DNA of 64,000 nucleotides. It comes from an uncultured Planctomycetota bacterium. GTDB lineage: Bacteria > Planctomycetota > Planctomycetia > Isosphaerales > Isosphaeraceae. Positions 356 to 14,892 of this stretch are shown piece after piece. A program made the translations under genes and the position numbers. Where the stretch lies: NCBI GenBank assembly GCA_963823665.1, contig CAWGMQ010000010.1:2560001-2624000 (forward strand), in the 5' to 3' direction. The notes beneath the pieces were generated by a model. The model worked only from the letters and a program-made list of their open reading frames with translations, had not been told where the DNA came from and made no database searches. Position 1 is the first letter of the stretch, and each line of letters begins with the position of its first letter.

Positions 356-709
356 ATGACGGCGGTCTCGAAGTCTTCGAGCAGCGCCAACCGAGCCGGA
401 GGCGAGTTCGAGCCCATTGCCGAAGCGATGCAGATTTCAATCGACGACCTAACACCTAGGAGCACGCGCATGGCCAGAAAACTCGAAGTCGAGTTGACGA
501 ACGCTGGGTGCAGCTTGGACCCGAAGAGGTTCATCGAGCTTCTCGAAGAACGGCACGCATCCATGCACCCTGGCTGGACCGTTGACGACCTTGTTTGTCA
601 CCCTGATGAAGCGAAGGCGTATTGCGAGCGGGTTCGGTCCGAGGTTGGAGCACCGGTGCCGGATCACGTCATCCTTCGGCGACTAATGAACGCCCGCAAG
701 GCACACTAG
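356..709 (+). CDS. Hypothetical protein with one copy of the helical domain repeated in the 1590-2531 protein
   Basis: 117-aa ORF; C-terminal HPGWTVDDLVCHPDEAKAYCERVR...ILRRLMNARK aligns by eye with HDGYSVDRTLADPQLAARFVKRCR...VCRRLLSLRK. Confidence 0.75.
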   Translation: MTAVSKSSSSANRAGGEFEPIAEAMQISIDDLTPRSTRMARKLEVELTNAGCSLDPKRFIELLEERHASMHPGWTVDDLVCHPDEAKAYCERVRSEVGAPVPDHVILRRLMNARKAH

Positions 710-1569
710 AAGTTGCACCAGACGACTTCGACCATTCGGCGCTTTTGCTTTCCGCCTGCCGCCTGATTCGGCAGGGTGAATTCATGCTGCGTCCAGTCTC
801 GAAGCCGCCTGTCATACACTTCTGACCGGTATCCCGATAACATGACGCGGCCCTTGCACTCGAGGATTGTTTCTAAGAGAGTTTCGTGCTGCTCGGCGCA
901 CATCTCAAACGAGTACACGTCATCCGACGTTCGAGTTTCGCTGAGATAGGGCGGATCTAGGTAAAACAGCGTTCGGCTGCCATCTTGCTGACGGATTACG
1001 TCAAGTGCATCGCGGCTAAGAATTGACACCCTCTGCAATCGCGAATGTACGTCAGCGAGTCCGGCTACAGCGTTCAGCCACGCGCTAGCCTGTTCATTCA
1101 TTCCGCGTCGTGTTCGCATGCGACTCAACGGTGCGAAGCCGTCCATTCGGCCAGCGAGGGATTGTCGGCAATGCACGAAAAACCGCACGGCGTCATCAAC
1201 CGGATCAGCTCCATTTGATTCGGACGCGAGTCGCCATTCGGCTTCGGAAAACGGGATTGCCGAAAGCACTCGGGCAAAGCGCGAGAATGAATCTTCCCCC
1301 TGGAGTACACGCCAGAAGTTGGTAAGCCGTCCGTCAATGTCGTTTACTGCTTCGCTGATGCCGGTCGGATCATTAACCAGCAATACCGACCCGCCCCCGA
1401 AGTAGGGCTCGCAGTAGTGCAACCACCCTGGATCGTTTGTGTCAGGATCATTCGAGTGCTTGCATCGTGCCGGCATCTTCGCAACGATCTTCTCGGCAAG
1501 ATAGTGTTTGCCACCATGCCATTTGAGCGGCGGCGAAATACGATTCGATGCACTGGCCATGCTTGGCAC
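706..1569 (-). CDS. Dam-like (D12 class) DNA N6-adenine methyltransferase
   Basis: PLKWHGGK, motif I EPYFGGGSV, NDID, motif IV YLDPPY, C-terminal EVVWCNF. Confidence 0.93.
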   Translation of the reverse strand: MPSMASASNRISPPLKWHGGKHYLAEKIVAKMPARCKHSNDPDTNDPGWLHYCEPYFGGGSVLLVNDPTGISEAVNDIDGRLTNFWRVLQGEDSFSRFARVLSAIPFSEAEWRLASESNGADPVDDAVRFFVHCRQSLAGRMDGFAPLSRMRTRRGMNEQASAWLNAVAGLADVHSRLQRVSILSRDALDVIRQQDGSRTLFYLDPPYLSETRTSDDVYSFEMCAEQHETLLETILECKGRVMLSGYRSEVYDRRLRDWTQHEFTLPNQAAGGKQKRRMVEVVWCNF

Positions 1570-1589
1570 CTTGAGCGTGTATGGGCGTC

Positions 1590-2531
1590 CTACGCGGCCT
1601 TCGGCAGCATGTTGAAGATTGGCTGATACGTCTCAATTGCCTTGAACTCAAATAAACGAAGGCTCACGCCACAAATGTCTTCTGGTCTCACAAAATCAAC
1701 CGTGATCTTGTCCGGGGAAGGAGACCAGAAGTGGTTTCCCACTGCGGCCAAAACGTCTTTATCCTGAAATATGCCGACCCCGAAACGTAGGTTCTCGGAC
1801 TGGCTCAGGAATAGATAGCGGCCTGGCTCCCGTAACGAAAAGACGCCCTCGGAGGAAGGCACTGTATCCAGTCGGATATTCGACAAGTGTCCGGGCGTGT
1901 GCCAATGGGCTTCAACCTTCGAGATGTCAAGGTGAGCCAATTCCTCCGCATCGGCCTTGCGTCGCGACCGAACGTTCTTCCGTAGGTGAAGTGCCGCCAA
2001 CCGAAAATCGACAGCATCTCCTGATCGCCCGACCTTGGCGACGTTCTCGTCGAAGGCTTTGCCGACATCGGGATCGGCCAAAAGGTCGTCGTAGCTCGCG
2101 TCATAGCGGTACGTCAACTTGGCGAACGCAATCTCGGCAGGAATTAGGAAGGGGTGTAGGTTCCGCTTGTCTTCTCTGGTCGTTTTGACCGGGAATCCAC
2201 CCGCTTTCCTCAGCGAAAGAAGCCGACGACAAACTGCGGCGTGGGGAGCGTCAATGCCGAGTTGCCGGCATCGTTTAACGAACCGAGCTGCCAACTGCGG
2301 GTCTGCCAAGGTACGATCAACGGAATACCCGTCGTGAATTTCTCCAAAAGCTTTGACGATAATAGAGTCTCGCGAGCTGTCCGGACGCAAGGGCGGCATC
2401 TCGATAGGGCGATTGGCAAGCATCTGTCCAACAGCGCCCACGGCCGAAAAGCCTCCGAACGCCGGGCGGGAGATCGGCCGGACAGTGCTGCCCAGAATTC
2501 GACTTATCGTCAGCTGATCTAAATCGTTCAT
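1590..2531 (-). CDS. Two tandem unnamed helical domains plus a degenerate GIY-YIG-like C-terminal domain
   Basis: Internal repeats ...SVDRTLADP...LRK and ...SYDDLLADP...LRK; C-terminal VPSSEGVFSL...YLFLSQSENLR...FE...YQPIFN resembles the GIY-YIG fold. Confidence 0.7.
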   Translation of the reverse strand: MNDLDQLTISRILGSTVRPISRPAFGGFSAVGAVGQMLANRPIEMPPLRPDSSRDSIIVKAFGEIHDGYSVDRTLADPQLAARFVKRCRQLGIDAPHAAVCRRLLSLRKAGGFPVKTTREDKRNLHPFLIPAEIAFAKLTYRYDASYDDLLADPDVGKAFDENVAKVGRSGDAVDFRLAALHLRKNVRSRRKADAEELAHLDISKVEAHWHTPGHLSNIRLDTVPSSEGVFSLREPGRYLFLSQSENLRFGVGIFQDKDVLAAVGNHFWSPSPDKITVDFVRPEDICGVSLRLFEFKAIETYQPIFNMLPKAA

Positions 2532-2532
2532 G

Positions 2533-2979
2533 TCAGTCGTAGTTCGAGATAAAGTGAATGGCGTTATTAAAGACGACCGCTACAGCACCTTGCTTCGTTT
2601 TTTTTCCCATTCGTTTCAGGAAGTTCGCCAACTCGCCTATCTTCACCGGATCTTCAACGTCTTCTCGCTTGGCAAGACTTTGGATCATGATTGGCTTGTC
2701 AGTCAGCAGTTGGCCATCGTTCTCGTCATCACGCCAGATACCACATAATTCGGTAAAGCCGGTCGCCCCACCATACAGCTTTCCCATTAAGTCGAGGGCT
2801 TGCGAGGCCCATTCAGCCTGATCCTTGAGTTTCGACTTGTCGCGTGCGTGACTCGGTATAAACACAATAACACAATCGTCCGCAAGACCAAATCGAAGGC
2901 GGCCCGTGAGCCACTGAGGGAATGAAGAATCAGCAGGTGCGTCCTTGGCCTTCGCTTTCGACACTAGCTTGTCCCTCAT
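2533..2979 (-). CDS. Hypothetical protein, DUF3574-like
   Basis: ATG at 2979 (or GTG at 2964 with GAGGGA RBS); LYGGATGF...GIWRD...QGAVAVVFN pattern; abuts the next gene. Confidence 0.65.
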   Translation of the reverse strand: MRDKLVSKAKAKDAPADSSFPQWLTGRLRFGLADDCVIVFIPSHARDKSKLKDQAEWASQALDLMGKLYGGATGFTELCGIWRDDENDGQLLTDKPIMIQSLAKREDVEDPVKIGELANFLKRMGKKTKQGAVAVVFNNAIHFISNYD

Positions 2980-3192
2980 CGGATTATGCGAGCTACCAAA
3001 ACATCCGGCATAGCACACACGCCCCCGTCGAAGACGAGGGCGCGGCCATTGAGTTGATTCAAACGCGCAAGCGTGCGGGCGGCAAGGGGTTGGTAGGTAA
3101 TGACGGGCTTGCCAGGCCAAACTTCTTGAAGGTGGCCTAGTAGCAAATCTGCCGCACAGCCGGTATTCTAGATTTCCTATTGACCGCCCCAG

Positions 3193-3279
3193 ATCGTATC
3201 AATGAATCGTATCAAGGGCGTTTGTATCAGAATTGGTGGGAAAAACGCTTGACTTAAACCTCTTAATGCCAACGAGTTA
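3193..3279. promoter_or_regulatory. Putative integrase arm-type repeats and IHF-like site at an element end
   Basis: ATCGTATCAA direct repeats at 3193 and 3206, partial TGTATCAG at 3223, TAA-N19-TTA at 3255-3279, directly before the tRNA fragment. Confidence 0.5.
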
Positions 3280-3288
3280 GAATCAATT

Positions 3289-3329
3289 GGAGAGGTGACA
3301 GAGTGGTCGATTGTGCGGCACTGGAAATG
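3289..3329 (+). tRNA. 5' half of tRNA-Ser(GGA); pseudo-tRNA / att-site core
   Basis: GGAGAGGTGACAGAGTGGTCGATTGTGCGGCACTGGAAATG gives acceptor 5' strand, D-arm and anticodon arm CGGCA-CT-GGA-AA-TG; no variable arm, T-arm or acceptor 3' strand follows. Confidence 0.8.
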
Positions 3330-3390
3330 ACGTTCAACGGGTGCCTATTGCCCTAAGTTGTTTGGAGACGAGTGGATAGGAAGATCGCCC

Positions 3391-3753
3391 ATGGTCAGCA
3401 AGGACCGTGAACAGACGCGGACAGAGGCCGCCCAGGCGACGCGACGGCAGAAGTCACGTGAGCTTGATGAGGAACACGAGCAGATCCTCAAGAAGGCGCA
3501 GATTTACTTGCTGTTCGAGGCGAAGCGCCCGATGTTCTGGAACGTCGCCGATATCCGAGAGGGGAAGGGCGAGGGTGGCTCACGCCGCTGGATCATTGCC
3601 GTGCATCTCCGTGCTCCGTCTGGGCATGAGGGATATCTGGGCGACCTCCTGTACGATGGCGAGCGGTTCTCGGAGTTGACGGACGTCGAATTGATGCGGC
3701 GGCGAGTGCAGCAGATCACGGCTGACCCCGGAAGTCCGTTGCCGATCGCATGA
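3391..3753 (+). CDS. Hypothetical protein coupled to a C39 peptidase-like gene
   Basis: ATG 3391; ATGA overlap with the next ORF; most of it recurs at 8862-9184. Confidence 0.7.
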   Translation: MVSKDREQTRTEAAQATRRQKSRELDEEHEQILKKAQIYLLFEAKRPMFWNVADIREGKGEGGSRRWIIAVHLRAPSGHEGYLGDLLYDGERFSELTDVELMRRRVQQITADPGSPLPIA

Positions 3754-4247
3754 GTACCGGACTTCCGCACTACCGCCAGGAGAAGAAGAATACCTGCGCC
3801 CTGGCGTGCCTGCGGATGGTCCTTGCTTCCTTCGGCACGGACGTCGAGGAGGGCACGCTCGAGGCCCGGGCGCACATGGAGATCGACGGTACAGAGATCG
3901 GCGAACTTGAGCGTCTTGCGCGGCAGTTCGGGGTCGTCGCAGACATCCAGGAGGCGACAGTGGCGCAGCTTCGGCACCTGCTGGAGGACGGGAAGCTGCC
4001 TATCGTCTACATCGACCGTGCTATCTTTTAATTGCGTCCCCGCCAACGGGCGCAGCACTCCATTCGCGACACCATCATCCACACCGTCATCCCCACGCGG
4101 GTCATTACCAGTTTTGTCACATACCATGACCCTCGCCAAGTTCGGGTCATCCGGAAGACCACTGGCCTCTTCCGTCAGGCATACGAAGCCCTGGGAGGGC
4201 GCTGCGTCGTCTGCTCCAAACCTGCGAGAGGCCTAGACCATGGCTAG
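3750..4247 (+). pseudogene. C39-like cysteine peptidase with in-frame TAA at 4029-4031
   Basis: QEKKNTCALACLRMVL (Q...C), HTVI and YHDP motifs; ORFs 3750-4031 and 4032-4247 share one frame. Confidence 0.75.
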
Positions 4248-4261
4248 CCGTGAGTCTCCCG

Positions 4262-4366
4262 CCGACTGCAAGTGCCTGACGCTCGGCAAAAGGTGGGTGT
4301 CTCACATCCCTGACGCTCGGCAAAAGGTGGGTGTCTCACATCCCAAAGGTGGGTGTCTCACATCCC
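4262..4366 (+). repeat. Element end with three tandem AAAGGTGGGTGTCTCACATCCC copies
   Basis: GGTGTCT at 4296, 4330 and 4352; the 4262-4309 flank resembles the reverse complement of 9373-9421. Confidence 0.85.
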
Positions 4367-4566
4367 CCCGGGTTTCGGGTAGGCGGGAAGACGATCGCCG
4401 CCGCCGCTTTCTCGGATCACTGCGTTTTCTGCCGTTGCGTCCACCGCCAGGCAGCGACCGCCGCAAGTTGCACGGCGCAGAAGTGTGGAGTCGCCCCGAT
4501 CCCCGTATGTTGCTGAGACTGCGGAGTCCGACTGTCCCGAGATCAGTGGATTTATCCTGCTCGAGT

Positions 4567-4980
4567 TCATTTGGCAGTCAGGTGCCAGTTTTCCAGGTTC
4601 AAGTCCGGCACCCGGCTGAACTCTGCGGTATTGGCGGTGACGAGTATAAGACTGGCAGAGCGGGCATGACCGGCCAAGAGCACGTCGTACGCACCGATCA
4701 TACAGCCCTGGGACTCCAAAAGAGCGCGAATGCGCGCGGCTTCCCTCGCGGCCTCTCCGTCAAAAACGAGCTCGCTAATCGTGGCCAGCAGCAGATCAAC
4801 CTTGGCCAGCTCCTTCGCCGGGTCGTCGCACTTTTCGACCCCAGTGAATAGCTCGTAACTTGTAATGCTGGAAATCGCGCAGTCTGCCGGCGGGACCGCA
4901 GCCATGTGTTGCAGCACCAGGGTGTGATGTCGCATCGCGGCAATGCATGTGTTCGTGTCGAGCAGATAGCGTATTGGCAA
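4567..4980 (-). CDS. vapC: VapC PIN-domain toxin
   Basis: YLLDTN, ITSYEL, IGAYDVLLAGHA, LVTANTAEFSRV. Confidence 0.93.
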   Translation of the reverse strand: MPIRYLLDTNTCIAAMRHHTLVLQHMAAVPPADCAISSITSYELFTGVEKCDDPAKELAKVDLLLATISELVFDGEAAREAARIRALLESQGCMIGAYDVLLAGHARSASLILVTANTAEFSRVPDLNLENWHLTAK

Positions 4981-4983
4981 CGA

Positions 4984-5217
4984 TCACCCCAGGATCGGAG
5001 CCGGCGGAACTCGCCCTTGGGTTGGACGCGCGAAGGCCGGATCGTCGATGCGAATGCGATCAAAGAACCCGAGCGGCCATGTCGCGGGCTTGATCGGTTG
5101 CAGGACAAGAGACTCACCCTGCCGTCGAATGGAGACGGTGTCTCCTTCCAGGTGAAACCCCTCCGGCAATTTCACGAGCTGGCAGCCGTCAATCCGTACT
5201 ATTTCAGCGACTTTCAT
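4984..5217 (-). CDS. vapB: VapB (AbrB/MazE-type) antitoxin
   Basis: MKVAEIVRIDGCQLVKLPEGFHL...VSIRRQGESLVLQP immediately upstream of vapC. Confidence 0.85.
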   Translation of the reverse strand: MKVAEIVRIDGCQLVKLPEGFHLEGDTVSIRRQGESLVLQPIKPATWPLGFFDRIRIDDPAFARPTQGRVPPAPILG

Positions 5218-5496
5218 CGCGTTGCCCCTTCTCATACGAAAAGCGTCGCGCATGTCCAATCATAGCAAAGCTAGCGTCCTTCCTCAAATGAGTGGACGAG
5301 GCGAGCCGGTGGATGTGTATCGGAAGGCGAAAGGCTGGTTTTGAGAAACGGGCGCCGGAAACAGGGCCGTAGCTTGTTTTCACCCGGGACAAGACGTTGG
5401 TAGTTCCTGGCAGACGCGCCTGAAACCGCCAGGCGCCTGGTTTCATCTCGCAGGCTTGGTATCAGGGAAGGGCGGATCGGTGTCTCAGAAGAAAAA

Positions 5497-5634
5497 CAAT
5501 TGGATACGACCATCTGTCATGCCGCGGACCGTGACCTCGTGGTCTCGGTATTCGCAGAGCAGCTTGTCACCGATCCTGCATTTTGGGGGCAGGTACGGGC
5601 CGTAAAGGAGCTTGAATCGTTCGGAGTCGATCAT
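5497..5634 (-). pseudogene. Truncated N-terminus of a planctomycete-type hypothetical protein
   Basis: MIDSERFKLLYGPYLPPKCRIGDKLLCEYRDHEVTVRGMTDGRIQ breaks off next to a GGTGTCT motif at 5479. Confidence 0.5.
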
Positions 5635-6212
5635 GGCTGTGATCCCGGATTGGGAGATGGGGGACCATGATTTCGGCAGCTTACCAGCGGACGGGATGGG
5701 GGACAATGGGGTGGTAAGGTGGAGGTTTTTTGGGGCGGGTCGGTATGGCGATTGATCGGTGTTGGATTCCCGTCATGTCACCCGTATCGATTTGACCGGC
5801 GGGGCCGCCTCTGAATCACCGATGGCGCGGCTCACGGCTGTGTGTGTGGACTGGCGTGTCGATTCGTTGGGCGTGACCTGGCGCCGGAGGCTTCGGTAGC
5901 GCAATCGACTGGCCAGTGAATCCCGGTACTCGCAGCGCGCTAACCCATCTCGGGGCAGTTGGCGGAGTGCGCTGAGGGTGCGTTGATTGGGCTTGGAATC
6001 GAGCCTTTCTCCGCATGGTGCGCCGAAATGGGCGACTCGGTTCCGGTCAGCTCTTCTCCGCTGGAGAACGACCCGCCCCAACTGAGTTGCATGTCGTGTC
6101 GCCGGAAGCTGTCGCCGGGACCTGGGCGTCCCAACTGGCATCGTGTTGTCTCGGTCCAACAAATTCATTCTCGGCCTGGAAACCGAACTAGAATCGGGAT
6201 GGGGAGGTTGCC

Positions 6213-6830
6213 ATGAGTGCTCGTCGCTCTGAACTATTGCCGAGATTCTGCAGTCGACGCCGTTCGGGGATGAACCTCTCATACGCTGAAGTCAACGGAA
6301 TCTATGCGATCGTCGAGGCCAACGCGAATAAAGCCAGAAAAACCAAGATATCAAAGCGGCTTGCGATTTCAGATCAGACGATCGCAACCCGATTGACAAG
6401 TCAACGGAACGGCAAGAAGAAGAAGAAGAAGAAGAATAGGAGGAAGAAGAATCGCTCTGATCGAATGAAACTCGCTGAGGCGAGGTTCGTAGTCCGCCTC
6501 GAAGAAGCGGAAGCGGTCGAAGACCGCGGAGACTACGGCAAGGCCGAGTTTCTCTACAATGAACTAATTTGCTTGTGCAAACGCGACTTTCGCATTGGCC
6601 GACACGAATTGGCGTTTCTATACCATGACTTGGCTCGCTTGCATCTTTGCCGGGATAGGTTGGAACTGGCGAAAATTCTATTCGAGAAATCGCTCGAGGT
6701 ATTCGTCAGGACGGTGGGTGTTGAGCATCGCTACACGCGCACCGTGAGAGCGGATCTTGCCGCCTTGGCTAGCGGAAGGGATTGCGGGGCTTCCGCCCGG
6801 AAAGGCACCAATTCCGTACGCGCCTACTAA
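6213..6830 (+). CDS. Lys-rich protein with C-terminal TPR repeats
   Basis: GDYGKAEFLYNE, LAFLYHDLARLH...AKILFEKSLE...GVEHRYT; start uncertain. Confidence 0.65.
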   Translation: MSARRSELLPRFCSRRRSGMNLSYAEVNGIYAIVEANANKARKTKISKRLAISDQTIATRLTSQRNGKKKKKKKNRRKKNRSDRMKLAEARFVVRLEEAEAVEDRGDYGKAEFLYNELICLCKRDFRIGRHELAFLYHDLARLHLCRDRLELAKILFEKSLEVFVRTVGVEHRYTRTVRADLAALASGRDCGASARKGTNSVRAY

Positions 6831-6907
6831 CTCGGAGGGTATCATGTTGCGGCGAGAACGCTGACTACATGAGTTGGGGCGCTCATCTGTCCGAGGGAGC
6901 GGTTGCG

Positions 6908-7040
6908 ATGTGGTGGACACCGAGTGGTGAACGAGCGCTGCTTGGCGCGGAGTGGGACTTTTTCCGTGAAGGGCTTCATCACTGTTGGGAGTGGGTCGAG
7001 CAATCGATGAATGATCCTGATCTGTTCCAAACCGGGGTCA
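6908..7040 (+). pseudogene. 5' fragment of a hypothetical gene cut at an element end
   Basis: GAGGGAG RBS then MWWTPSGERALLGAEWDFFREGL...DLFQTGV, followed by element-end and intron sequence. Confidence 0.55.
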
Positions 7041-7048
7041 GGTATGTT

Positions 7049-7781
7049 GCCGGGTCGCCCTGGCGGATCGCTCCGCCAGGGCTCCCACTGATCCGGACGT
7101 GCCCAATTAAGGCATCCGGCTCGTCATGTCGCGGCGTCGCTGTCCCTCACACGATCTGGTCGCCTCGCGGTGACGCGCTCTGAGGTCCAATGCCCTCGGC
7201 GTGGTTCCGGCTTCCAGTCCGCGACACGGTACCCCCTTCGCTCCACAGGGTCTGGGAGGGCCCATTCCCCCGCTTCACTGCTACTACGGAGCACTCCGAC
7301 TCCCGTCCGCCCATTTCGCCGCACTTCGTTGCCTTCGTTTGGCGATACCACCCTTGCGTCTTGTTCGCTCCCAGCGACCCGACGCGGGGTCGTGGGCCGG
7401 GGAGTTGGTATTCCGGTTCCCGAGCCGGAAATGTCAGTGGAGACGGATGGGGCTCTCAGGTTCCCGAGCAACCCTCGCGTCCCTGCGCCATGTTCTTGGA
7501 CCCCGGCAGGACCGAACACGCCAGGCCATTGCGGCGTGTCGACACGGCCCCCGCTTGTGTCTACAACGGAGGCTCCCACGATGAGTATTTCGGGGCTCGA
7601 TAGCATGGCATGGAGACTCGCTGTCTACGCTTCGCAGTGAGGGTCACCCCTCCCCACGCAAGACTTGCTTCCGGCTGCCGGCCAGGCTCTGCCGGGCGGG
7701 ATTCGTTAACCCGCAGGGTCGCGATGAAAGGTTTCTGTGTTTCGAGGCACTTCCTCCTTTCTCGAGCTTTTCCTGACGCAA
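7049..7781 (-). mobile_element. ORF-less group II intron (~733 nt)
   Basis: Minus strand begins TTGCGTCAGGAAAAGC; domain V GAGCCGGATGCC-TTAATT-GGGCACGTCCGGATC (7090-7122); domain VI hairpin ending GCGACCCGGC; EBS1 AGACAC loop (7557-7562) complementary to the 5' exon GTGTCT (7782-7787); no RT ORF. Confidence 0.9.
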
Positions 7782-7992
7782 AGACACCCACCTTCTGCGC
7801 AGCGTCTGACACGCGCTTTCTTCTTGTCGAAATGACGGGCGGCCGTGCCGTGGTTCTTCGCCGAACGTGTGGGCCGCGAACGCATGGATGCGGAGGGCGT
7901 GACAAGAAGGGTGGGTGTCTGGGTTCCTGGATGCGGAGGGCGTGACAAGAAGGGTGGGTGTCTGGGTTCCCGAAGGGTGGGTGTCTGGGTTC
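7782..7992. mobile_element. ~150-bp non-coding element with outward-facing GGGTGTCT ends, copy 1 (left tip 7041-7048 separated by the intron; right end reiterated)
   Basis: AGACACCCACCTT at left; GAAATGAC..GGCCGTG..GAACGTG..TGCGGAG..TGACA core shared with 9373-9519; GGTGTCT at 7914, 7957 and 7980. Confidence 0.75.
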
Positions 7993-8115
7993 CCCTGGGA
8001 GGGCGCTGCGTCGTCTGCTCCAAACCTGCGAGAGGCCTAGACCATGGCTAGCCGTGAGTCTCCCGCCGACTGCAAGTGCCTGACGCTCGGCAAAAGGTGG
8101 GTGTCTCACATCCCT
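7993..8115 (+). repeat. Direct duplicate of 4189-4311 (C39 gene 3' end plus element end)
   Basis: 123 bp, identical by eye, offset 3804. Confidence 0.9.
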
Positions 8116-8184
8116 TATAACAGAATGTAGCATTTTCCGGTATTCTGTGATATCGTTGAGCGGAACCGAAAGGAGGGTGCCGGC

Positions 8185-8469
8185 ATGAACGTTTCACTGA
8201 CCAAAGAGTTTGAGAGCTACGTCACGGAGAAGGTTGAGAGCGGCTTGTACCAGTCCGCCAGCGAGGTCATCCGCGATGGGCTCAGGCTGATGAGGGAACG
8301 GGATGAGTTGCACCAAAGCAGGGTGGCCGAGCTTCGCCGAGACATCGCCATAGGCATTGACCAAGCCGAACGTGGGCAGGTGCAGCCTTTCAACGAGGAA
8401 GTCACAGCCCGCGTCAAGGCACGCGGGCGGAAACGCCTGGCGGCCAAAGACAGATCGGACTCGGTATGA
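8185..8469 (+). CDS. parD: ParD-type (CC2985 family) antitoxin
   Basis: MNVSLTKEFESYVTEKVESGLYQSASEVIRDGLRL; AGGAGG RBS. Confidence 0.92.
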   Translation: MNVSLTKEFESYVTEKVESGLYQSASEVIRDGLRLMRERDELHQSRVAELRRDIAIGIDQAERGQVQPFNEEVTARVKARGRKRLAAKDRSDSV

Positions 8470-8756
8470 ATGAGCCGAGGCTCACCGAGCAAGCGGAGGC
8501 CGACCTAGACGAGCTATGGGAATACATCGCGGCGGATAACCCAGACGCCGCCGACCGCATGGTTGATGCCGTTCTGGAGAGCCGCATGCATGTTCGCTTC
8601 CCTGGCATGGGCCAAAACCGCGACGATCTCCGAGTGGGCCTGCGCTGCTTCGTCGTGTCGCCGTACGTAGTGTATTATCGGCCGATCGAGGACACGATCG
8701 AGGTGCTGAGGATTTTGCACGGAGCACGCGATATTAAAAATATCAGCATAGAATGA
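8466..8756 (+). CDS. parE: ParE/RelE family toxin
   Basis: LTEQAEADLDELWEYIAADNPDAADR...YVVYYR...IEVLRILHGARD. Confidence 0.92.
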   Translation: MNEPRLTEQAEADLDELWEYIAADNPDAADRMVDAVLESRMHVRFPGMGQNRDDLRVGLRCFVVSPYVVYYRPIEDTIEVLRILHGARDIKNISIE

Positions 8757-8861
8757 CTTCGCAGTTCTTTCTGAGAGGCCGAGCGAGGCGGGTGCCGGGA
8801 CGAGGCGGAGACCGGGACGCGATCAGTGAATGCAAAACTGTCCGCGTCCCGGTTTCACTTC

Positions 8862-9373
8862 CCCAGGCGACGCGACGGCAGAAGTCACGTGAGCTTGATG
8901 AGGAACACGAGCAGATCCTCAAGAATGCGCAGATTTACTTGCTGTTCGAGGCGAAGCGCCCGATGTTCTGGAACGTCGCCGATATCCGAGAGGGGAAGGG
9001 CGAGGGTGGCTCACGCCGCTGGATCATTGCCGTGCATCTCCGTGCTCCGTCTGGGCATGAGGGATATCTGGGCGACCTCCTGTACGACGGTGAGCGGTTC
9101 ACGGAGTTGACGGACGTCGAATTGATGCGGCGGCGAGTGCAGCGGATCACGGCTGACTCCGGAAGTCCGTTGCCGATCGCATGAGTACCGGACTTCCGCA
9201 CTACCGCCAGGAGAAGAAGAATACCTGCGCCCTGGCGTGCCTGCGGATGGTCCTTGCTTCCTTCGGCACGGACGTCGAGGAGGGCACGCTCGAGGCGCGG
9301 GCGCACATGGAGATCGACGGTACAGAGATCGGCGAACTTGAGCGTCTTGCGCGACAGTTCGGGGTCGTCGCAG
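8862..9373 (+). pseudogene. Diverged duplicate of 3431-3942 (hypothetical gene lacking its 5' end plus C39 peptidase lacking its 3' end)
   Basis: 512 bp, offset 5431, about 8 substitutions by eye; ends exactly at an element end. Confidence 0.88.
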
Positions 9374-9704
9374 GATGTAAGACACCCACCTTTTGCCAAG
9401 CAACGGGTACTTGCCGTCGGCGCGTTTGAAATGACCAGAGGCCGTGGTTTTGCGCTGAACGTGCGAGGGGGAATGAATGGGTGCGGAGAACCATGACAGA
9501 AGCATGGGTGTCTGGAATCTGGGTGTCTGGGTGTCTGGGTGTCTGGAATCCTGTGGAATCCTGTGGAATCCTGGGTGTCTGGTATCCCCTGAACATGCGA
9601 GGGGAAATGAATGGGTGCGGAGAACCATGACAGAAGCATGGGTGTCTGGAATCTGTGTGGAATCCTGTGGAATCCTGGGTGTCTGGTATCCCTCTGGTAT
9701 CCCT
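9373..9704. mobile_element. ~150-bp GGGTGTCT element, copy 2, with an expanded array of end repeats
   Basis: GGATGTAAGACACCCACCTTTTGCC at left; GGTGTCT at 9507, 9522, 9530, 9538, 9574, 9641 and 9678; TGTGGAATCC tandems; ~65-bp internal segment duplicated. Confidence 0.8.
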
Positions 9705-10124
9705 GACCAACAGTGAATCACCCAGGATCATCCGGTTCGACCAGTGCTGGTCGTGGTGGTAGAAGTCGATCTTCTTGTCGAAATCGTCGATGCCGTTGAA
9801 ATCGGCGAAGAGGGTCAGTTGCTCTTCGGGCTTGCCTTTTTTTCGCTGGGCGAGCAGGTCATCGATGATCGCCTGGGGGTGGATCTTTTCCTGGATGTAG
9901 ACTGGCACGATTGGAACTGCCAGGTCTTGGCGGTCTTGGTCGTCTTTGCCTTTCCAGACGAGTTGGGGGTCGAGCGAGGGATCGCGGGGGTAGAGCATCG
10001 TCCTGGGGGCTGCTTCATCGTCGGCGATGAAGTCGCGCAACTCTTCGGTGGGGATGTTTTTCCGCTTGTCTTTGTGGCGAGTGAATTCGACTTTGGTTTC
10101 GGGCGGCGGCTTCTTTTTGGCCAT
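9705..10124 (-). pseudogene. mod: Type III R-M methyltransferase (Mod) N-terminal fragment
   Basis: RKNIPTEE, RDPSLDPQLVWKGKD, YIQEKIHP, WSNRMILGDSLLV, then runs into the repeat array before any DPPY motif. Confidence 0.85.
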
Positions 10125-10474
10125 CAGGGGTGCGACTCCGGAGGCTGCGGGATCAAGGGTTCCAATTGTTCGAGCAGTTGATCTGCCTTGGTGGTGGCGA
10201 TATTCCACACAATATCGAGCTTAACGTTCTCGTAGCCATGAATGATTCGATTGCGCGTGCCGATGATGTCGCGCCACGGTATTTCAGAGTGAGCTTGACG
10301 AAACTCGGGTGATAGGCGGGTTGCCGCTTCACCGATCAGTGCGGTCGCATGAAGAACCGCATACTGCAAGACTTCGTCGCTCTGGAGCTCGTCAAATGTC
10401 CTGCCCGCGACGAATCGCCGCAGCTTGCGACAGGCAAGGACGATGTCGAGGATTGAACCCGGGTCACGATCCAT
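10124..10474 (-). CDS. HepT-like (DUF86) HEPN ribonuclease toxin
   Basis: IGEAA, IPWRDIIGTRNRIIHGY (R-x4-H-x-Y). Confidence 0.9.
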   Translation of the reverse strand: MDRDPGSILDIVLACRKLRRFVAGRTFDELQSDEVLQYAVLHATALIGEAATRLSPEFRQAHSEIPWRDIIGTRNRIIHGYENVKLDIVWNIATTKADQLLEQLEPLIPQPPESHP

Positions 10475-10796
10475 AGATCACCTGCGCTGTCTCGAGAATG
10501 TGGTTCCTTCGTATCCAATTCTCGCTCTGCAGGACGCTCTCCTTCGTAACGACGTCGACCTCGCGGCCGACCAAGGCGCTGAGGTCGTTTTCGAGTTGCT
10601 GTACTCTTGACATCCAGGGTCCGTAATCATCGTTTCGAAACACGACCATGAAGTCGACGTCGCTCTCAGGGCCGAAGTCGTCGCGCAGGAATGACCCGAA
10701 TACGAATAGCTGGACCACGTCAGACATGCGGCAGATTTCGGCTATTCGGTCCAGCGGCAATCGAATGCCGTTCCGCTCGATCGGTTGGGTGATCAT
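10464..10796 (-). CDS. MNT nucleotidyltransferase antitoxin
   Basis: VFGSFLRDDFGPESDVDFMV (GS-x10-DxD), GREVDVV. Confidence 0.9.
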   Translation of the reverse strand: MITQPIERNGIRLPLDRIAEICRMSDVVQLFVFGSFLRDDFGPESDVDFMVVFRNDDYGPWMSRVQQLENDLSALVGREVDVVTKESVLQSENWIRRNHILETAQVIYGS

Positions 10797-10827
10797 GGTG
10801 GTGTTTCCCTCGTTTCGTGAGGCAATT

Positions 10828-10849
10828 GTCAGGCTGAAGCCTGACCTAC
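10828..10849 (-). repeat. GTAG-type REP palindrome supplying the res stop codon
   Basis: Minus strand GTAG-GTCAGGCT-TC-AGCCTGAC encodes VGQASA*. Confidence 0.65.
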
Positions 10850-13800
10850 TTTTTCGGGCTTTCCGGCAGGGACCGAACGAATTTGTTCCAGGACTTCGTA
10901 TGGGTCGGTGACCTCCAGGAATCTCCAGCGGCCGAAGGCGCCGTGGTTGTTGACGGCCGGCACCCAGAGGGTGCGCGCCGTCATCACCTTGGCAGCTTTT
11001 TCCTTCTTCTTTTCGCCGGTCACTTCGATGATCAGGTTCAGCGGGTCGAGCAGGCCGCGGCCGTCGTCGAGCACGGCTACGAAGTCAGGGTGGTACTGAT
11101 GCTCCTCACCGTTGATTGTATAGGGGATCGTGAAGCCGAGGTTGTGGTTCTTCGACGTAGCGGATCACCTCGTCCATGTCTCTTCCAGGGTTTGGGCCAT
11201 CTTTTGCTCCCAGCTGTCGGTGTCGGCGACGACGTGGGAGACGTGGCACTTGTCGGCGCGAGTGGCGAAAACCGGGCCGGGTCGTGTCGAAATCGACGTA
11301 GCGGGTCGAGCCGATCGTGTCGTACGGACGGAGGATCGGCCGGAGCGATGGCGGTCCGTCCGGCGAACCTTTGGAGCCGCGCACGATCGCGCCGTAGATC
11401 CGGTCGGCGGCGTCGTGGGCAAACTCGACCAGGAGCAGGAGCTGCGGGAACGTGTGGTCCTTGCAGTGGACGTAACCTCTCGAGCCATCGCTTGGCAATC
11501 GCGAGCACCTGCGGGAACAACCAGGCCTGCACCTCGCTGTCGAATCGGTGGACGGCGGTCTTCTCTTTGCCGGATCTCGCCGTCCTGGCGGAAGTATTTC
11601 TCCAAGCGTGAGCTTGGCCAGCAGGAACGCGACCTCGCTCGGGCGGCGCTTCTTGAGATCGTCGAGCGAGTGGATGCTGCTTTCGCCCACGATCGGGGCG
11701 TTCTCGGTCTTGATCGGGATGTCGGCCGTCGTGAGCGTCAGCCGCGAGTCGTCGGTGAACTCGGGCGTTAGCTTCCTTGTGGGTAGCTCGTAGCGGTAGC
11801 CGAGCAGGCGCGGGAAGGTGATCTCGCAGGCGAGCCGGCTCTCGAGGGCGCGGACGCGGGTCGGCATCGGGCCGGGCTTGGGGTTGGCGATCGAGCCGGA
11901 GCAGGGGATGAACGAGAACGGCACGCCGTAGATCTCGGCGTATTCGGGCTCGAACCGCCCTTCCGCGTTGGCGGCGTAGCTCATTCGTCGCAGGGCGCGG
12001 CCGACGACCTGCTCGCAAAGAAGCTGGGTGCCGAAGGCACGCACGCCCAGGACGTGGGTGACGGTGTTGGCGTCCCAGCCTTCGGTGAGCATCGAGACGC
12101 TGACGACGCACTTGACGTGCTCGCCGAGCTTGCCGGGCTTGCCGACGGTGTTCATGACCTCGCGGAGCAGGTCTTCCTCGGTGAGCTGTCGGCGTCGCGG
12201 CCCGGGAAATCGGGCGCGGTACTCGGCCTTGAATTCCTCGATCTCGCGAGCGGCGATCTTCTTGAAGTCGGCGCTCATGCCCTCGCCGGATTCGAGCTGC
12301 TCGCTGTCGACCAGGATCGTGTTGGGGCGCGGGCTCCAGCGTCCGTCTTTCTCGTTGTTGAAGAGCGGCAACCGGCCGGGGACGACGATGGTTTCGGTGT
12401 CGGAAATCGACCTTTTCCCAGCCGGAGATGTAGTTGAAGACCAGCTTCGAAACGTTGGTGTTGTTGCAGACGACGATGAAGACTGGGGGTGTGATTCCCT
12501 TGGCCTGGGCGTCGGCGTTTTGCTCCCAGAGCTCGTGGTACTTCTTGTAGTTGCCGTACAGGCTCTGGATGGCCCCTTCGAGCTCGGCGGGAAGCTTTGG
12601 TTCTTCGTCGAGCTCTTCGGTCTTCCGGCCTTTCCTGGGAAGGTGCTCGCGGATGCGGAGCCAGAGGTCGCGGTAGGTGGGCTGGTCGCCCTGCATCGAG
12701 TCGTCGGAGACCGGGACGCGGGGGACTTTGACGATGCCGGATTCGATCGCGTCGATCAGGGAGAAGTCGGAGACGACCCAGGGGAAGAGCGTTCCCTCGG
12801 GGTAGCCTGAGCCGCGGAGGAAGAACGGGGTGGCCGAGAGGTCGAAGATCGCCCGGACGCCGATCTTGGCTTTGACGGCCTCGATGCCGGAGATCCAGAT
12901 TCGGGCTTCATTGTCGCGTTTCTCAGCCTCTTTGCGATCGTCGCCGATCAGCGTCTCGGCTGCTTCGGGGTCCTCCGGCTTGCGGCGGTAGCAGTGGTGG
13001 GCTTCGTCGTTGATGACGATGATGTTCTTCTTGGTGCCCAGCTCGCGGCAGACGCGGCGGACCATCTGATCGGGAGACTCGGTGAAGATGCCGGGCGTGC
13101 CCTCGGAGAGGATTCCCTTGGTGACCTTGCCGGCGCTGATCTTCTCGCGAAGCTGGAAGGCGTGAAAGTTGGTGATGACGATCCGGGCCTGGCCGAGCTT
13201 TTCAAGCTGATGGCCGGGTACGATGTCGCGCAGGCGGTAGTAGTTGTTGGGGTCGTTGGGGAGCAGGACGCGTAGGCGGTCGCGGATGGTGATGCCGGGG
13301 CTCACGATCAGGAACGTGTCGCCGAAGCGGGCGTCGTGGGGGTTAGCCAGTTTGTTGAGCGACTGCCAGGCGATCAGCATGGCCATGACGACGGTTTTGC
13401 CCGAGCCGGTGGCCATCTTGAAGGCGAAGCGCGGCAGGCCGGGATTTGACGTGTCGTTGCCTTTGCGGACGTCTTCTTCGATCGAGGCGTCGCCGAATTT
13501 CCGGGCGACCTCGTTGATGTAGATGATCGTTTCCAGCGCCTCGATCTGGCAGAAGAAGAGCTTTCGCTCACGTTCGGGGTCGGTCCAGTATTTCAGGAGC
13601 GCGGTCGTCGTGGGGGTGACGCCGATGTGGCCCCCTTCACGCCACATGCCGACTCGACGGCGGATGTGGTTGACGCTCTTGTTTTCTTCGATGCGGTCTT
13701 GGGTCCATTCGGTGTCGAAGACGAGCTGCTTACCCTTTTTCTTCGGGCGGGCGATGGGGATGAAGTAGGAGCTGCTGCGGCGACCGTCGACGATTTCGTT

Positions 13801-13890
13801 GGTGATTCCCTCGTCGGTGAATTTGAAGTGGCGCGCCGGCGCGGCGAAGGGGGAGTTCAGGATCGGGTTTTCAATCAGGGCGTCGGGCAT
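10829..13890 (-). CDS. res: Type III restriction endonuclease (Res, BPTD_3080-like), split by several frameshifts
   Basis: IENPILNSPF, FCQIEA, MATGSGKT, DEAHHCY, SATP, SMLTEGWD, EQVVGRALRR, IIEVTG..W..AVNN; frameshifts between ~11100 and ~12400. Confidence 0.9.
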
Positions 13891-14892
13891 CGGGCAAGCC
13901 TTGACGGTCATTCGATCGCAGCGGCGGGCTTCGCCGGCTCAGCGCGGCGTTTCTGCACCGTGGGCGCGATGAGCGGGATTTTATCATATGGGAGACCGGG
14001 ATTTCTATTCCTTTGTCCACTGCGGGTGGGAATTGCTCGGTTGTCGGTAGTCGGTGGACAGAGTCCGGTCGTGGCCCCATTGCCTTGAGACGCCTGCGAT
14101 TGGTTGGCGCGGGACATGGCCGGGGCGTGGCCGACAGGGGTGCCGGCGCCACGGCGCCTGCAAAAGTGCGCAAATACAGAGTCAATTTTCTTACTTATTC
14201 GATCTGATCGCTGGAACCCGGATTCTTTCTGGAAATTTCCCGGTCGACGGCGCGTCGAGTCTGCAAAGTCACCGCATACTGTAGAAAGTGAATAAAGGAT
14301 CCGAGCGTGCGACGAAACGCCTTGGCCAGAGGGGAGAACCGCGAGAGAAAGTGAGAGTGAGTTTTTCAAAATCAGTAACATCCAGCGACATTTCGTGACA
14401 TGAAGGAAGAGTTTTCGAAGTCACGCGCCGGTGCATGCCTTCGGAACGAGTTTCTTCCTTACTTAACCACAGCATGGGCGGCAGTTCTTCGCCATCGTTC
14501 CCAGCGTTGGTCACCTGCCTCCACACCGACACGCACAATCACGCCGCTTTCGGTGCTGGTCGCGAATTGAACCGAATCCCTTCGCGGAGCGAACGGCGAC
14601 ATTGGGCTGGCCGCGCCCAGACGCTGGGCTCTGCGGTTTGGCCAGCGCGAGAGCCCCCGTCCGCCGCCGGCGGCGGCACTTTTTCGCACAATTGGGGCTT
14701 TATGCCTCTGGCAGTTCCGATTATGCGGGCGGGCGGAAAAACTTTTTTTGAGATCCGGCAATTTCGGGCAAAAAAAGAAGCGGGTTTGTAGATCATCTCT
14801 GTAAAGGGCTTTGGGAAGTTTGGGGAAATTCTCGGGGTCGCGGGACTTCGGGCCAGGCTTCCAAGCTTATTTGAATAGGAATGTATACTGAT

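Follow-up and report, generated by a model that had tools for sequence, protein, structure and literature searches.

The window analysed here, a stretch of 64,000 nucleotides (C10:2560001-2624000) from a source genome (G000) of 16.5 Mb in 12 contigs, has its nearest protein relatives among Planctomycetota records and carries a patchwork whose joints lie at the tips of a non-coding mobile element of about 150 bp (Table 1). The element measures about 149 bp, has the form GG-N5-AGACACCCA...TGGGTGTCT-N5-CC and ends in inverted repeats TGGGTGTCT-N5-CC(C). The window holds 19 copies of the motif GGTGTCT, and 18 of these fall at 4296-9684; in shuffled sequences there are 5.4 +/- 2.3 (0/100 reach 19). 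At least 16 such motifs had been claimed for the mosaic by a sequence-only reading of this DNA, and 16 of the 18 are genuine ends once those at 5137 and 5479, which lack the end context, are dropped. All six junction strings quoted in that reading are found in the sequence, and the full elements that it called homologous (7782-7927 and 9373-9520) do align with each other. Two of its borders had to be corrected: the half-elements are real, with the start of the first moving from 4262 to ~4264, where homology to the relative described below stops, and element 1, given as 7041/7782-7927, aligns as proposed but holds a group II intron (7049-7781) within its left end.

The locus was compared with its orthologous stretch in a congeneric relative (G001), which reads through the C39 region, 6.8 kb (a PDC-S73-like gene in two frames and the rest of mod), the start of mod, MNT and res. 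No element lies within this orthologous stretch, and vapBC, parDE and the TPR gene were not found there either. The 5.4-kb mosaic at 4264-9703 stands in place of the 6.8 kb of the relative; its left break (4263) coincides with the half-element's inner edge and its right break with the tip at 9704, where the cut mod gene indicates that the source genome is the derived one. The replaced PDC-S73-like gene is a candidate defence gene by PADLOC (L209 9948-12225 of the relative) in a stretch without a counterpart in the source genome.

Within the mosaic, the copy at 7993..8115 is a one-ended fragment with non-element DNA. The 98% copy of 3431 at 8862, which had also been reported, is real, but its joint at 8861/8862 belongs to a second, different end family; an end of this family also bounds a partial parD copy (98.9%) in another array (C5:463.7 kb). 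The second end family (GCGTCCCGGTTTCACTCC) has its own stutter and a ~518-bp repeat, and lies within the same arrays (C5:464.1, 1401 and 1411-1414 kb).

Table 1. Features of the mosaic and its borders, in coordinates of the window
Feature	Position	Strand	Remark
1,071-bp unit: tRNA-like fragment, hypothetical gene, C39 peptidase pseudogene, half-element	3275..4344	+	duplicate 7.4 kb upstream
Peptidase C39 gene, internal stop	3750..4247	+	source of partial copies at 7993 and 8862
Half-element: inner part and end TGGGTGTCT-CACAT-CCC	4264..4310	+	left border of DNA differing from the relative
Two end reiterations, 34 and 22 bp, with different upstream restart positions	4311..4366	+	
vapC (PIN) toxin gene with a small antitoxin-like gene upstream (no Pfam match for the latter)	4567..5259	-	intact; absent from the orthologous stretch of the relative
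TPR protein gene	6213..6830	+	
Outer part (AACATACC) of element 1 left end	7041..7048	-	intron separates the motif; joined into an open reading frame (ORF) at 7040
ORF-less group II intron, 733 nt	7049..7781	-	inserted exactly after GGGTGTCT
Element 1 core, AGACACCCA...TGGGTGTCT-GGGTT-CC	7782..7927	+	
Two right-end reiterations, 43 and 23 bp	7928..7992	+	
Exact 123-bp copy of 4189-4311 (host DNA and half-element)	7993..8115	+	directly after an end
Intact parD-parE pair	8185..8756	+	starts 70 bp past an end
Second-family end (GCGTCCCGGTTTCACTTCC)	8808..8861	+	marks the 8862 joint
98.4% copy of 3431-3942	8862..9372	+	cut within C39 by element 2 left end
Element 2, GGATGTA-AGACACCCA...TGGGTGTCT-GGAATCT	9373..9520	+	
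Stuttered right-end array, units of 8 to 104 bp	9521..9703	+	
Type III methyltransferase (mod) 5' stub	9704..10120	-	cut at end terminus; gene continues in the relative
HepT/MNT pair and type III res gene (frameshifted in the assembly)	10124..13911	-	resident defence locus, common to the relative

The element, its ends and a putative tip-homing intron

When the end motif was mapped genome-wide, as had been proposed from the window, the pattern GGGTGTCT-N5-YC gave 236 matches in the source genome against 31 for the reversed control. The pattern is common to several miniature subfamilies, and conservation across 228 aligned ends ceases at +8. The element itself has at least 47 BLAST matches in the source genome (with 40 of 87 candidates scored); 53 copies were counted in 1.19 Mb of this genome around known sites and 25 in stretches of the relative. 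Of 61 genomes, three hold the element, the third (G030) weakly, and copies are 82-85% identical within a genome and 83% between species. Across 38 aligned copies we found no covariation for an internal hairpin (term -0.58; double changes at 2/19 paired positions), only the terminal stem being firm, and element 1 has no match to a sigma-70 promoter. Other miniature subfamilies with the same motif have TGCTTCC/TGAATCC ends and a length of ~137 bp (C3:20038-20175, C4:1026022-1026159, C5:100513-100650), and in a further one (C3:130.1 and 131.4 kb; 4 copies) an internal motif is followed by a short intron-like stub, TTGCGTCACCC.

The left end of element 1 reads GGGTGTCT, intron, AACATACC. The intron matches Rfam RF02005 with 138 bits and has the domain I-IV structure, and AGACAC in a domain I loop complements GTGTCT of the 5' exon (pairing of exon- and intron-binding sites). 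All 19 close copies of the intron lie in end sites, with GGGTGTCT as 5' exon and the remainder of the end as 3' exon; in the source-genome DNA around known sites, 13 are full ORF-less copies (96.7-100%) and 6 are longer. The three longer copies scanned all encode reverse transcriptases (RTs), one being followed by a nested RT-maturase-HNH intron. Judged from these sequences, the tips appear to serve a group II intron for homing, and its insertion would disable them at the DNA level; group II introns in attC sites offer a parallel (PMC7923331). We also observed twintron-like nesting (L043 2295-6041, at C11:557-561 kb; also on C6, C8 and C3): the RT of the end-homing intron is either followed or interrupted by an RT-maturase-HNH intron of 2.5 kb, whose copies at six sites share 99% identity. 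A related intron at C8:520 kb has the 5' exon CTGCGTCC.

Joints, stutter and co-oriented arrays

We traced 47 junctions to a donor in the source genome and found 98 self-joins in several genomes, the chains of self-joins not being independent of one another. At these joints the element side ends at +7 to +9, mostly at a C, and the partner restarts anywhere from 12 to 412 bp upstream, so that the self-joins (12-412 bp) have the fixed tip in common, with a constant right and a variable left border. Two claims made from the window are thereby borne out, namely that breakpoints lie at element ends (donor-traced junctions, homology breaks to the relative and self-joins agree) and that the ends have rejoined into themselves. 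The proposed fixed CC/T or C/T cleavage (the slash marking the cut), as for E. coli TnpA-REP, is not supported, since the partner side is free and T is a bias. The donor base 5' of the joint, counted in 66 self-joins with no homology before +7, shows no preference for C: A in 23, G in 17, C in 13 and T in 13. A T follows the terminal C-run in 53/111 ends of the source genome and 14/31 of the relative (28% expected), and C/T joints account for 10/73 self-joins cut at +8 and 3/49 cut at +7; for the joint at 9704, the intact gene of the relative implies a/T. Joints often cut genes, as in C39, mod and the ORF at 7040, and the left and right flanks of both window elements are unrelated.

The end sites are clustered, 99/159 being no more than 10 kb from another (random mean 34, maximum 66). 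Neighbours within 12 kb are co-oriented in 24/26 pairs of the source genome and 13/14 of the relative (37/40 in total), and neighbours more than 50 kb apart agree in 7/18; this observation favours local assembly and disfavours a lock to the replichore. The arrays share content: three cargo-plus-element units (C6:916 kb, C12:111 kb, C7:962 kb; 87-97%) lie in different arrays of the two genomes, and one array of the relative contains pieces located on three contigs of the source genome. In two of the three units the cargo is found past the GACATCC end, and different neighbours follow the GGAATCC end; this fits a unit of cargo plus element that ends at a fixed tip and would equally fit recombination within elements. 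A further candidate (C11:700 kb / C5:3394 kb of the relative) was dropped because the element adjoins opposite sides, and many other candidate rows proved to be the tail of a Y1 element itself and not cargo.

Among 91 ORFs, the array content comprises VapBC, ParDE, Gp49-HTH, Xre, transporters (an ABC transporter among them), RTs, redoxin, leucine-rich-repeat proteins, a second rplS and many unknowns, with genes facing both directions. This second rplS (L19) copy has a long C-terminal extension (L043 11186-12361, C11:566 kb; the other copy is at C3:937 kb); rplS had been tried as a synteny anchor and was dropped, the array copy being the second one. Enrichment of toxin-antitoxin genes near ends, another expectation from the window, is strong in the source genome, where 10/46 PIN/ParE genes are found 1 kb or less from an end (2.1% background; 8/42 excluding the window area) against 1/72 for integrases (0/19) and DDE transposases (1/53) together (Fisher p 3e-4). 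In the relative it replicates poorly, with PIN genes at 1/42 within 1 kb (6/42 within 5 kb) and integrases at 4/34.

A subclass 2.3 HUH/Y1 enzyme with the same ends

The sequence-only reading had proposed a RAYT-like or unknown enzyme acting in trans and had recognised none in the window; a Y1 gene flanked by the same ends, of subclass 2.3, is present elsewhere in the genome and supports a RAYT-like HUH enzyme. The family was uncovered by translating DNA flanking an end in L033; a Pfam Y1_Tnp census had given 11 matches with a sole subclass 2.3 gene among them. Its protein (P0002) is, by motif, a 409-residue HUH/Y1 transposase of subclass 2.3, with 25 matches in the source genome; frames are intact in two examined copies (L086 and L092), the majority of copies are decayed, and the autonomous unit measures ~1.8 kb (L092). 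The signature YVDLNP lies at 189-194, with Y189, V190, D191, L192 and N193 invariant in 44 homologues, and NHLH (N75, H76 and H78 invariant) with FWAGRF, or WE in L097, are variants of the NHYH/WE consensus. Extra segments at ~30-47 and 84-140 (beta1:alphaA and beta3:alphaC insertions), the invariant T209-S210 (TS motif) and a long tail, all judged by eye, agree with the subclass. The NCBIfam model REP_Tyr_transpos matches weakly (34 bits, cut-off 80), a PDB sequence search gave no match, and by family analogy the enzyme would use phosphotyrosine chemistry on single-stranded DNA.

Outward-facing ends lie on both sides of the gene at 6/10 Y1 loci of the source genome and on at least one side at 8/10. 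At 34 further loci (of 43, nine short-fragment loci being omitted, and several sharing few genomes) at least one outward end was found in 31 and both in 16, with at most one inward match per flank. Such ends flank subclass 2.3 genes in other phyla too, including gammaproteobacterial isolates (5/10 loci by pattern, 7/10 by eye), and a sister clade of the enzyme has TGCGTGTCC ends with like stutter in 5/6 loci, which indicates that the end motif tracks the enzyme clade. In a census of 121 family genomes, at least 20 motifs occur in 7/9 genomes with a close homologue (E <= 1e-44) and in 1/112 others, where kin are not independent and fragmented assemblies lose repeats. From these associations, the subclass 2.3 enzyme likely acts on the miniature ends in trans.

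TIRYT-type elements with their own ends also occur in the source genome. We rejected TIRYT genes, which have GGGGWSAG ends, as the partner, since a miniature tip in L036 abuts such a gene without bounding it. Two side observations concern other Y1 genes. In a single case (L041 43-1390, C10:187.5-188.9 kb) an end of a sister-clade Y1 gene is joined within the last repeat of an 18-repeat CRISPR array, and a long array of ~75-bp tandem repeats lies directly upstream of an IS200-type Y1 gene (L031 39-1500, C5:1391.5-1393 kb).

Proposed mechanism, known systems and rival readings

We put the probability at roughly 70% that the miniatures with shared inverted ends are processed in trans by a subclass 2.3 enzyme, one end per strand, which joins a fixed tip to a loose partner. 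Working on one motif at a time, the enzyme would nick single-stranded DNA 7-9 nt past it and would join this tip to a loosely chosen partner; short-range events would leave stuttered tips, and longer ones would cause adjacent deletions and carry flanking DNA. One end would be active per strand, like REP versus iREP, and co-oriented arrays would grow as new units are joined at existing tips. As to strands, either the 3'-OH of the tip may attack a loosely cut site, or the 5' end of the tip may be activated and attacked by any free 3'-OH. One-ended transfer, the link of enzyme to substrate and the growth of arrays at tips are what we infer from the joints, the shared ends and the array content.

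Several observations weigh against this account. IS608, IS91 and TnpA-REP cut defined words, and an unconstrained partner site departs from all three. No miniature interior was found beside the ends of the examined Y1 genes, i.e., no direct parent element, so the link to the enzyme rests on shared ends and co-occurrence. Two of the nine genomes with a close homologue (G086 and G009) hold 6 motifs only, and G030 (73% complete) has 73 motifs with a distant homologue. The fold model of P0002 is poor outside residues 30-160 (mean pLDDT 53); Foldseek with it returned nothing at E <= 0.001, and in a structural ranking with this weak model IS608 TnpA came first (Z 6.8, root-mean-square deviation 4.2, 105 aligned) in a tie with unrelated folds. 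Homologous recombination, in elements or in 99%-identical introns, could have produced the shared units, and the closeness of toxin-antitoxin genes to ends is weak in the relative.

Quentin et al. (2018; PMC6006769) describe subclass 2.3 without an identifiable flanking REP-like structure or a miniature family, and GGGTGTC/GACACCC is not found as text in its supplements; our enzyme resembles that subclass in protein motifs, insertions, length class and several diverged copies per genome, to which the present analysis adds defined ends, miniatures and arrays. Related Y1 groups are covered elsewhere (PMC5581495). The TIRtrons of TIRYT, subclass 2.1 (Di Nocera et al., 2013; PMC3733652), likewise have a Y1 gene between terminal inverted repeats and repeat families of dimers and clusters, but with the consensus GGGGWSAS and subclass 2.1 enzymes, whereas here the motif is another and the enzyme has YVDLNP. 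E. coli TnpA-REP with REP/BIME (PMC3333891, PMC8266576) shares a trans-acting Y1 enzyme, inverted units with one active per strand, and tandem amplification by cleavage and rejoining; it differs from our system, which has no GTAG foot, required hairpin or fixed C/T, has a multi-copy enzyme and makes kilobase rearrangements. No GT[AG]G foot precedes a palindrome in our ends, which read TGGGTGTCT-N5-CC with a variable spacer. The one-ended transposition of IS91 (PMC13181058) is similar in its HUH enzyme, single fixed end, carriage of adjacent DNA and absence of target duplication, but the ends of IS91 (ori/ter) are unlike each other and its target is a fixed tetranucleotide, where our system has inverted ends, a Y1 enzyme and a loose partner. 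A target duplication with both flanks from one site, as expected of a DDE-type miniature inverted-repeat transposable element, was seen neither at the window locus nor at the three shared units.

Integron and CALIN arrays consist of co-oriented repeats of ~100-150 bp between short genes, toxin-antitoxin pairs among them, and attC sites form hairpins with RYYYAAC...GTTRRRY boxes. Our arrays resemble them in the co-oriented repeats that separate genes, in their toxin-antitoxin pairs and in the group II introns within repeats, but have no IntI and no attC structure (no hairpin with such boxes in the 38 aligned copies), their joints are imprecise and cut genes, and their genes face both ways. In essence, the system works like REP/BIME together with the one-ended transfer of IS91, looks like an integron array and belongs to none of them. 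Our literature search, with subscription papers, ISfinder and TnCentral outside it, found no description of these ends or arrays and no described substrate for subclass 2.3 Y1 enzymes, which are widespread (6,284 matches among 8,000 scored candidates). With its defined end, the cut zone 7-9 nt past that end, a non-autonomous family and over 100 natural joints, the locus allows a cleavage and strand-transfer assay to be designed directly. Joining of a fixed tip to an almost free partner, if true, would be a new behaviour of HUH enzymes.

Among the rivals, it is quite possible, though short of even odds, that the arrays are selfish hotspots without cargo. The same enzyme would then insert miniatures and cause adjacent deletions in dispensable islands, arrays would form by local hopping, flanks would be swapped by homologous recombination, and toxin-antitoxin pairs would survive because their deletion is lethal. 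This reading, partly compatible with our preferred one, suits the joints that cut genes, the mixed array content with genes facing both ways and the single PIN gene within 1 kb of an end in the relative. Also in its favour, the nearest relative of an element lies in the same array for 10/25 elements (~2.7 expected); against it, this relative lies elsewhere for the other 15/25, and identity within arrays (85%) is about that between them (82%). Recombination by itself gives no co-orientation, the toxin excess over integrases and transposases in the source genome speaks against the selfish reading, and the exact 123-bp copy of host DNA and tip after another tip amounts to small-scale cargo transfer.

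Possible but, in our estimate, doubtful is that the arrays are built of integrase-free cassettes. Here the enzyme would pick up a miniature with the DNA past its far end and join this unit at the tip of another element, and arrays of toxin-antitoxin and accessory genes, with their elements in one orientation, would lengthen and reorder as integrons do, yet by one-ended transfer of single-stranded DNA, with the homing intron freezing joints. No integron integrase (TIGR02249) scored over the cut-off in either genome (G000, 92% complete; G001, 84%), in line with the integrase-free character proposed from the window; the cassette shuffling proposed with it is only partly supported, because many joints run through genes and the evidence for mobility comes from static genomes. 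If cargo units do move, integron-like arrays would have a second way of arising, and the turnover of defence islands would have a driver; at this locus the type III methyltransferase gene is cut, and the 6.8 kb holding the PADLOC PDC-S73-like gene has been replaced.

That the host has domesticated the elements as an integron-like platform, i.e., as reusable joints that collect and reorder toxin-antitoxin and accessory genes for its benefit, we consider unlikely. Co-oriented arrays with 1-5 kb spacing in two species, units moved between arrays, intact toxin-antitoxin pairs that begin just past tips (window 8116, C5:464.9 kb), an element interior 83% conserved across species and introns that home to joints, as to attC sites, speak for it. 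Against it stand the imprecise, gene-cutting joints, the lack of an integrase and of any attI or common promoter, the lack of a covarying attC-like hairpin and an enzyme that is multi-copy, mostly decayed and IS-like.

Co-orientation could instead reflect a replication strand bias, with lagging-strand targeting by a transposase of single-stranded DNA, and not the assembly of arrays; we hold this to be distinctly improbable. Such targeting is known for IS608/ISDra2 (PMC6006769), the 8 elements of C10 all face one way, and orientation matches the local GC skew (too noisy for mapping replichores) in 35/53 elements of the source genome. The agreement is 12/25 in the relative, however, distant neighbours agree too seldom, and C3, C5, C6 and C7 each switch, giving at least 6 switches where one chromosome allows two.

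An artefact of long-read assembly has, in our judgement, almost no chance of explaining the mosaic and is already largely refuted. The assembly does contain frameshifts (res gene), and C-run lengths are possibly homopolymer errors; yet short-read contigs of public runs, which may include the source sample and whose independence from it is uncertain, bridge the joints at 8115 (X2 record 15, 8023-8270), 8862 (X1 record 6) and 9704 (X1 record 8, 9663-9864) and cover the reiterated array at 9455-9588. Among the listed short-read records none bridges 4311, 7040, 7993 or 9372 and no contig crosses the whole stretch, but identical ends and stutter recur in short-read assemblies and in complete isolate records.

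To the left of the mosaic, the 1,071-bp unit is 99.6% identical to C10:2555887-2556956 with offset 0 at both termini, each copy stopping exactly at an end terminus, and an integrase remnant lies between the two copies. The unit begins with the tRNA-like fragment (window 3289-3328; L060 15902-15941), which by eye resembles the 5' half of a tRNA-Ser gene preceded by an att-like arm; ARAGORN found no tRNA gene in 42 loci, L060 included. In the relative, ~17 copies of a 29-bp repeat at 35-bp spacing (G001:C4:3464206-3464898) match window 10825-10853. Upstream of the tRNA-like fragment, the window carries genes like those of phages or of integrative and conjugative elements (356-3120), with a D12-class adenine methyltransferase at 706-1569.

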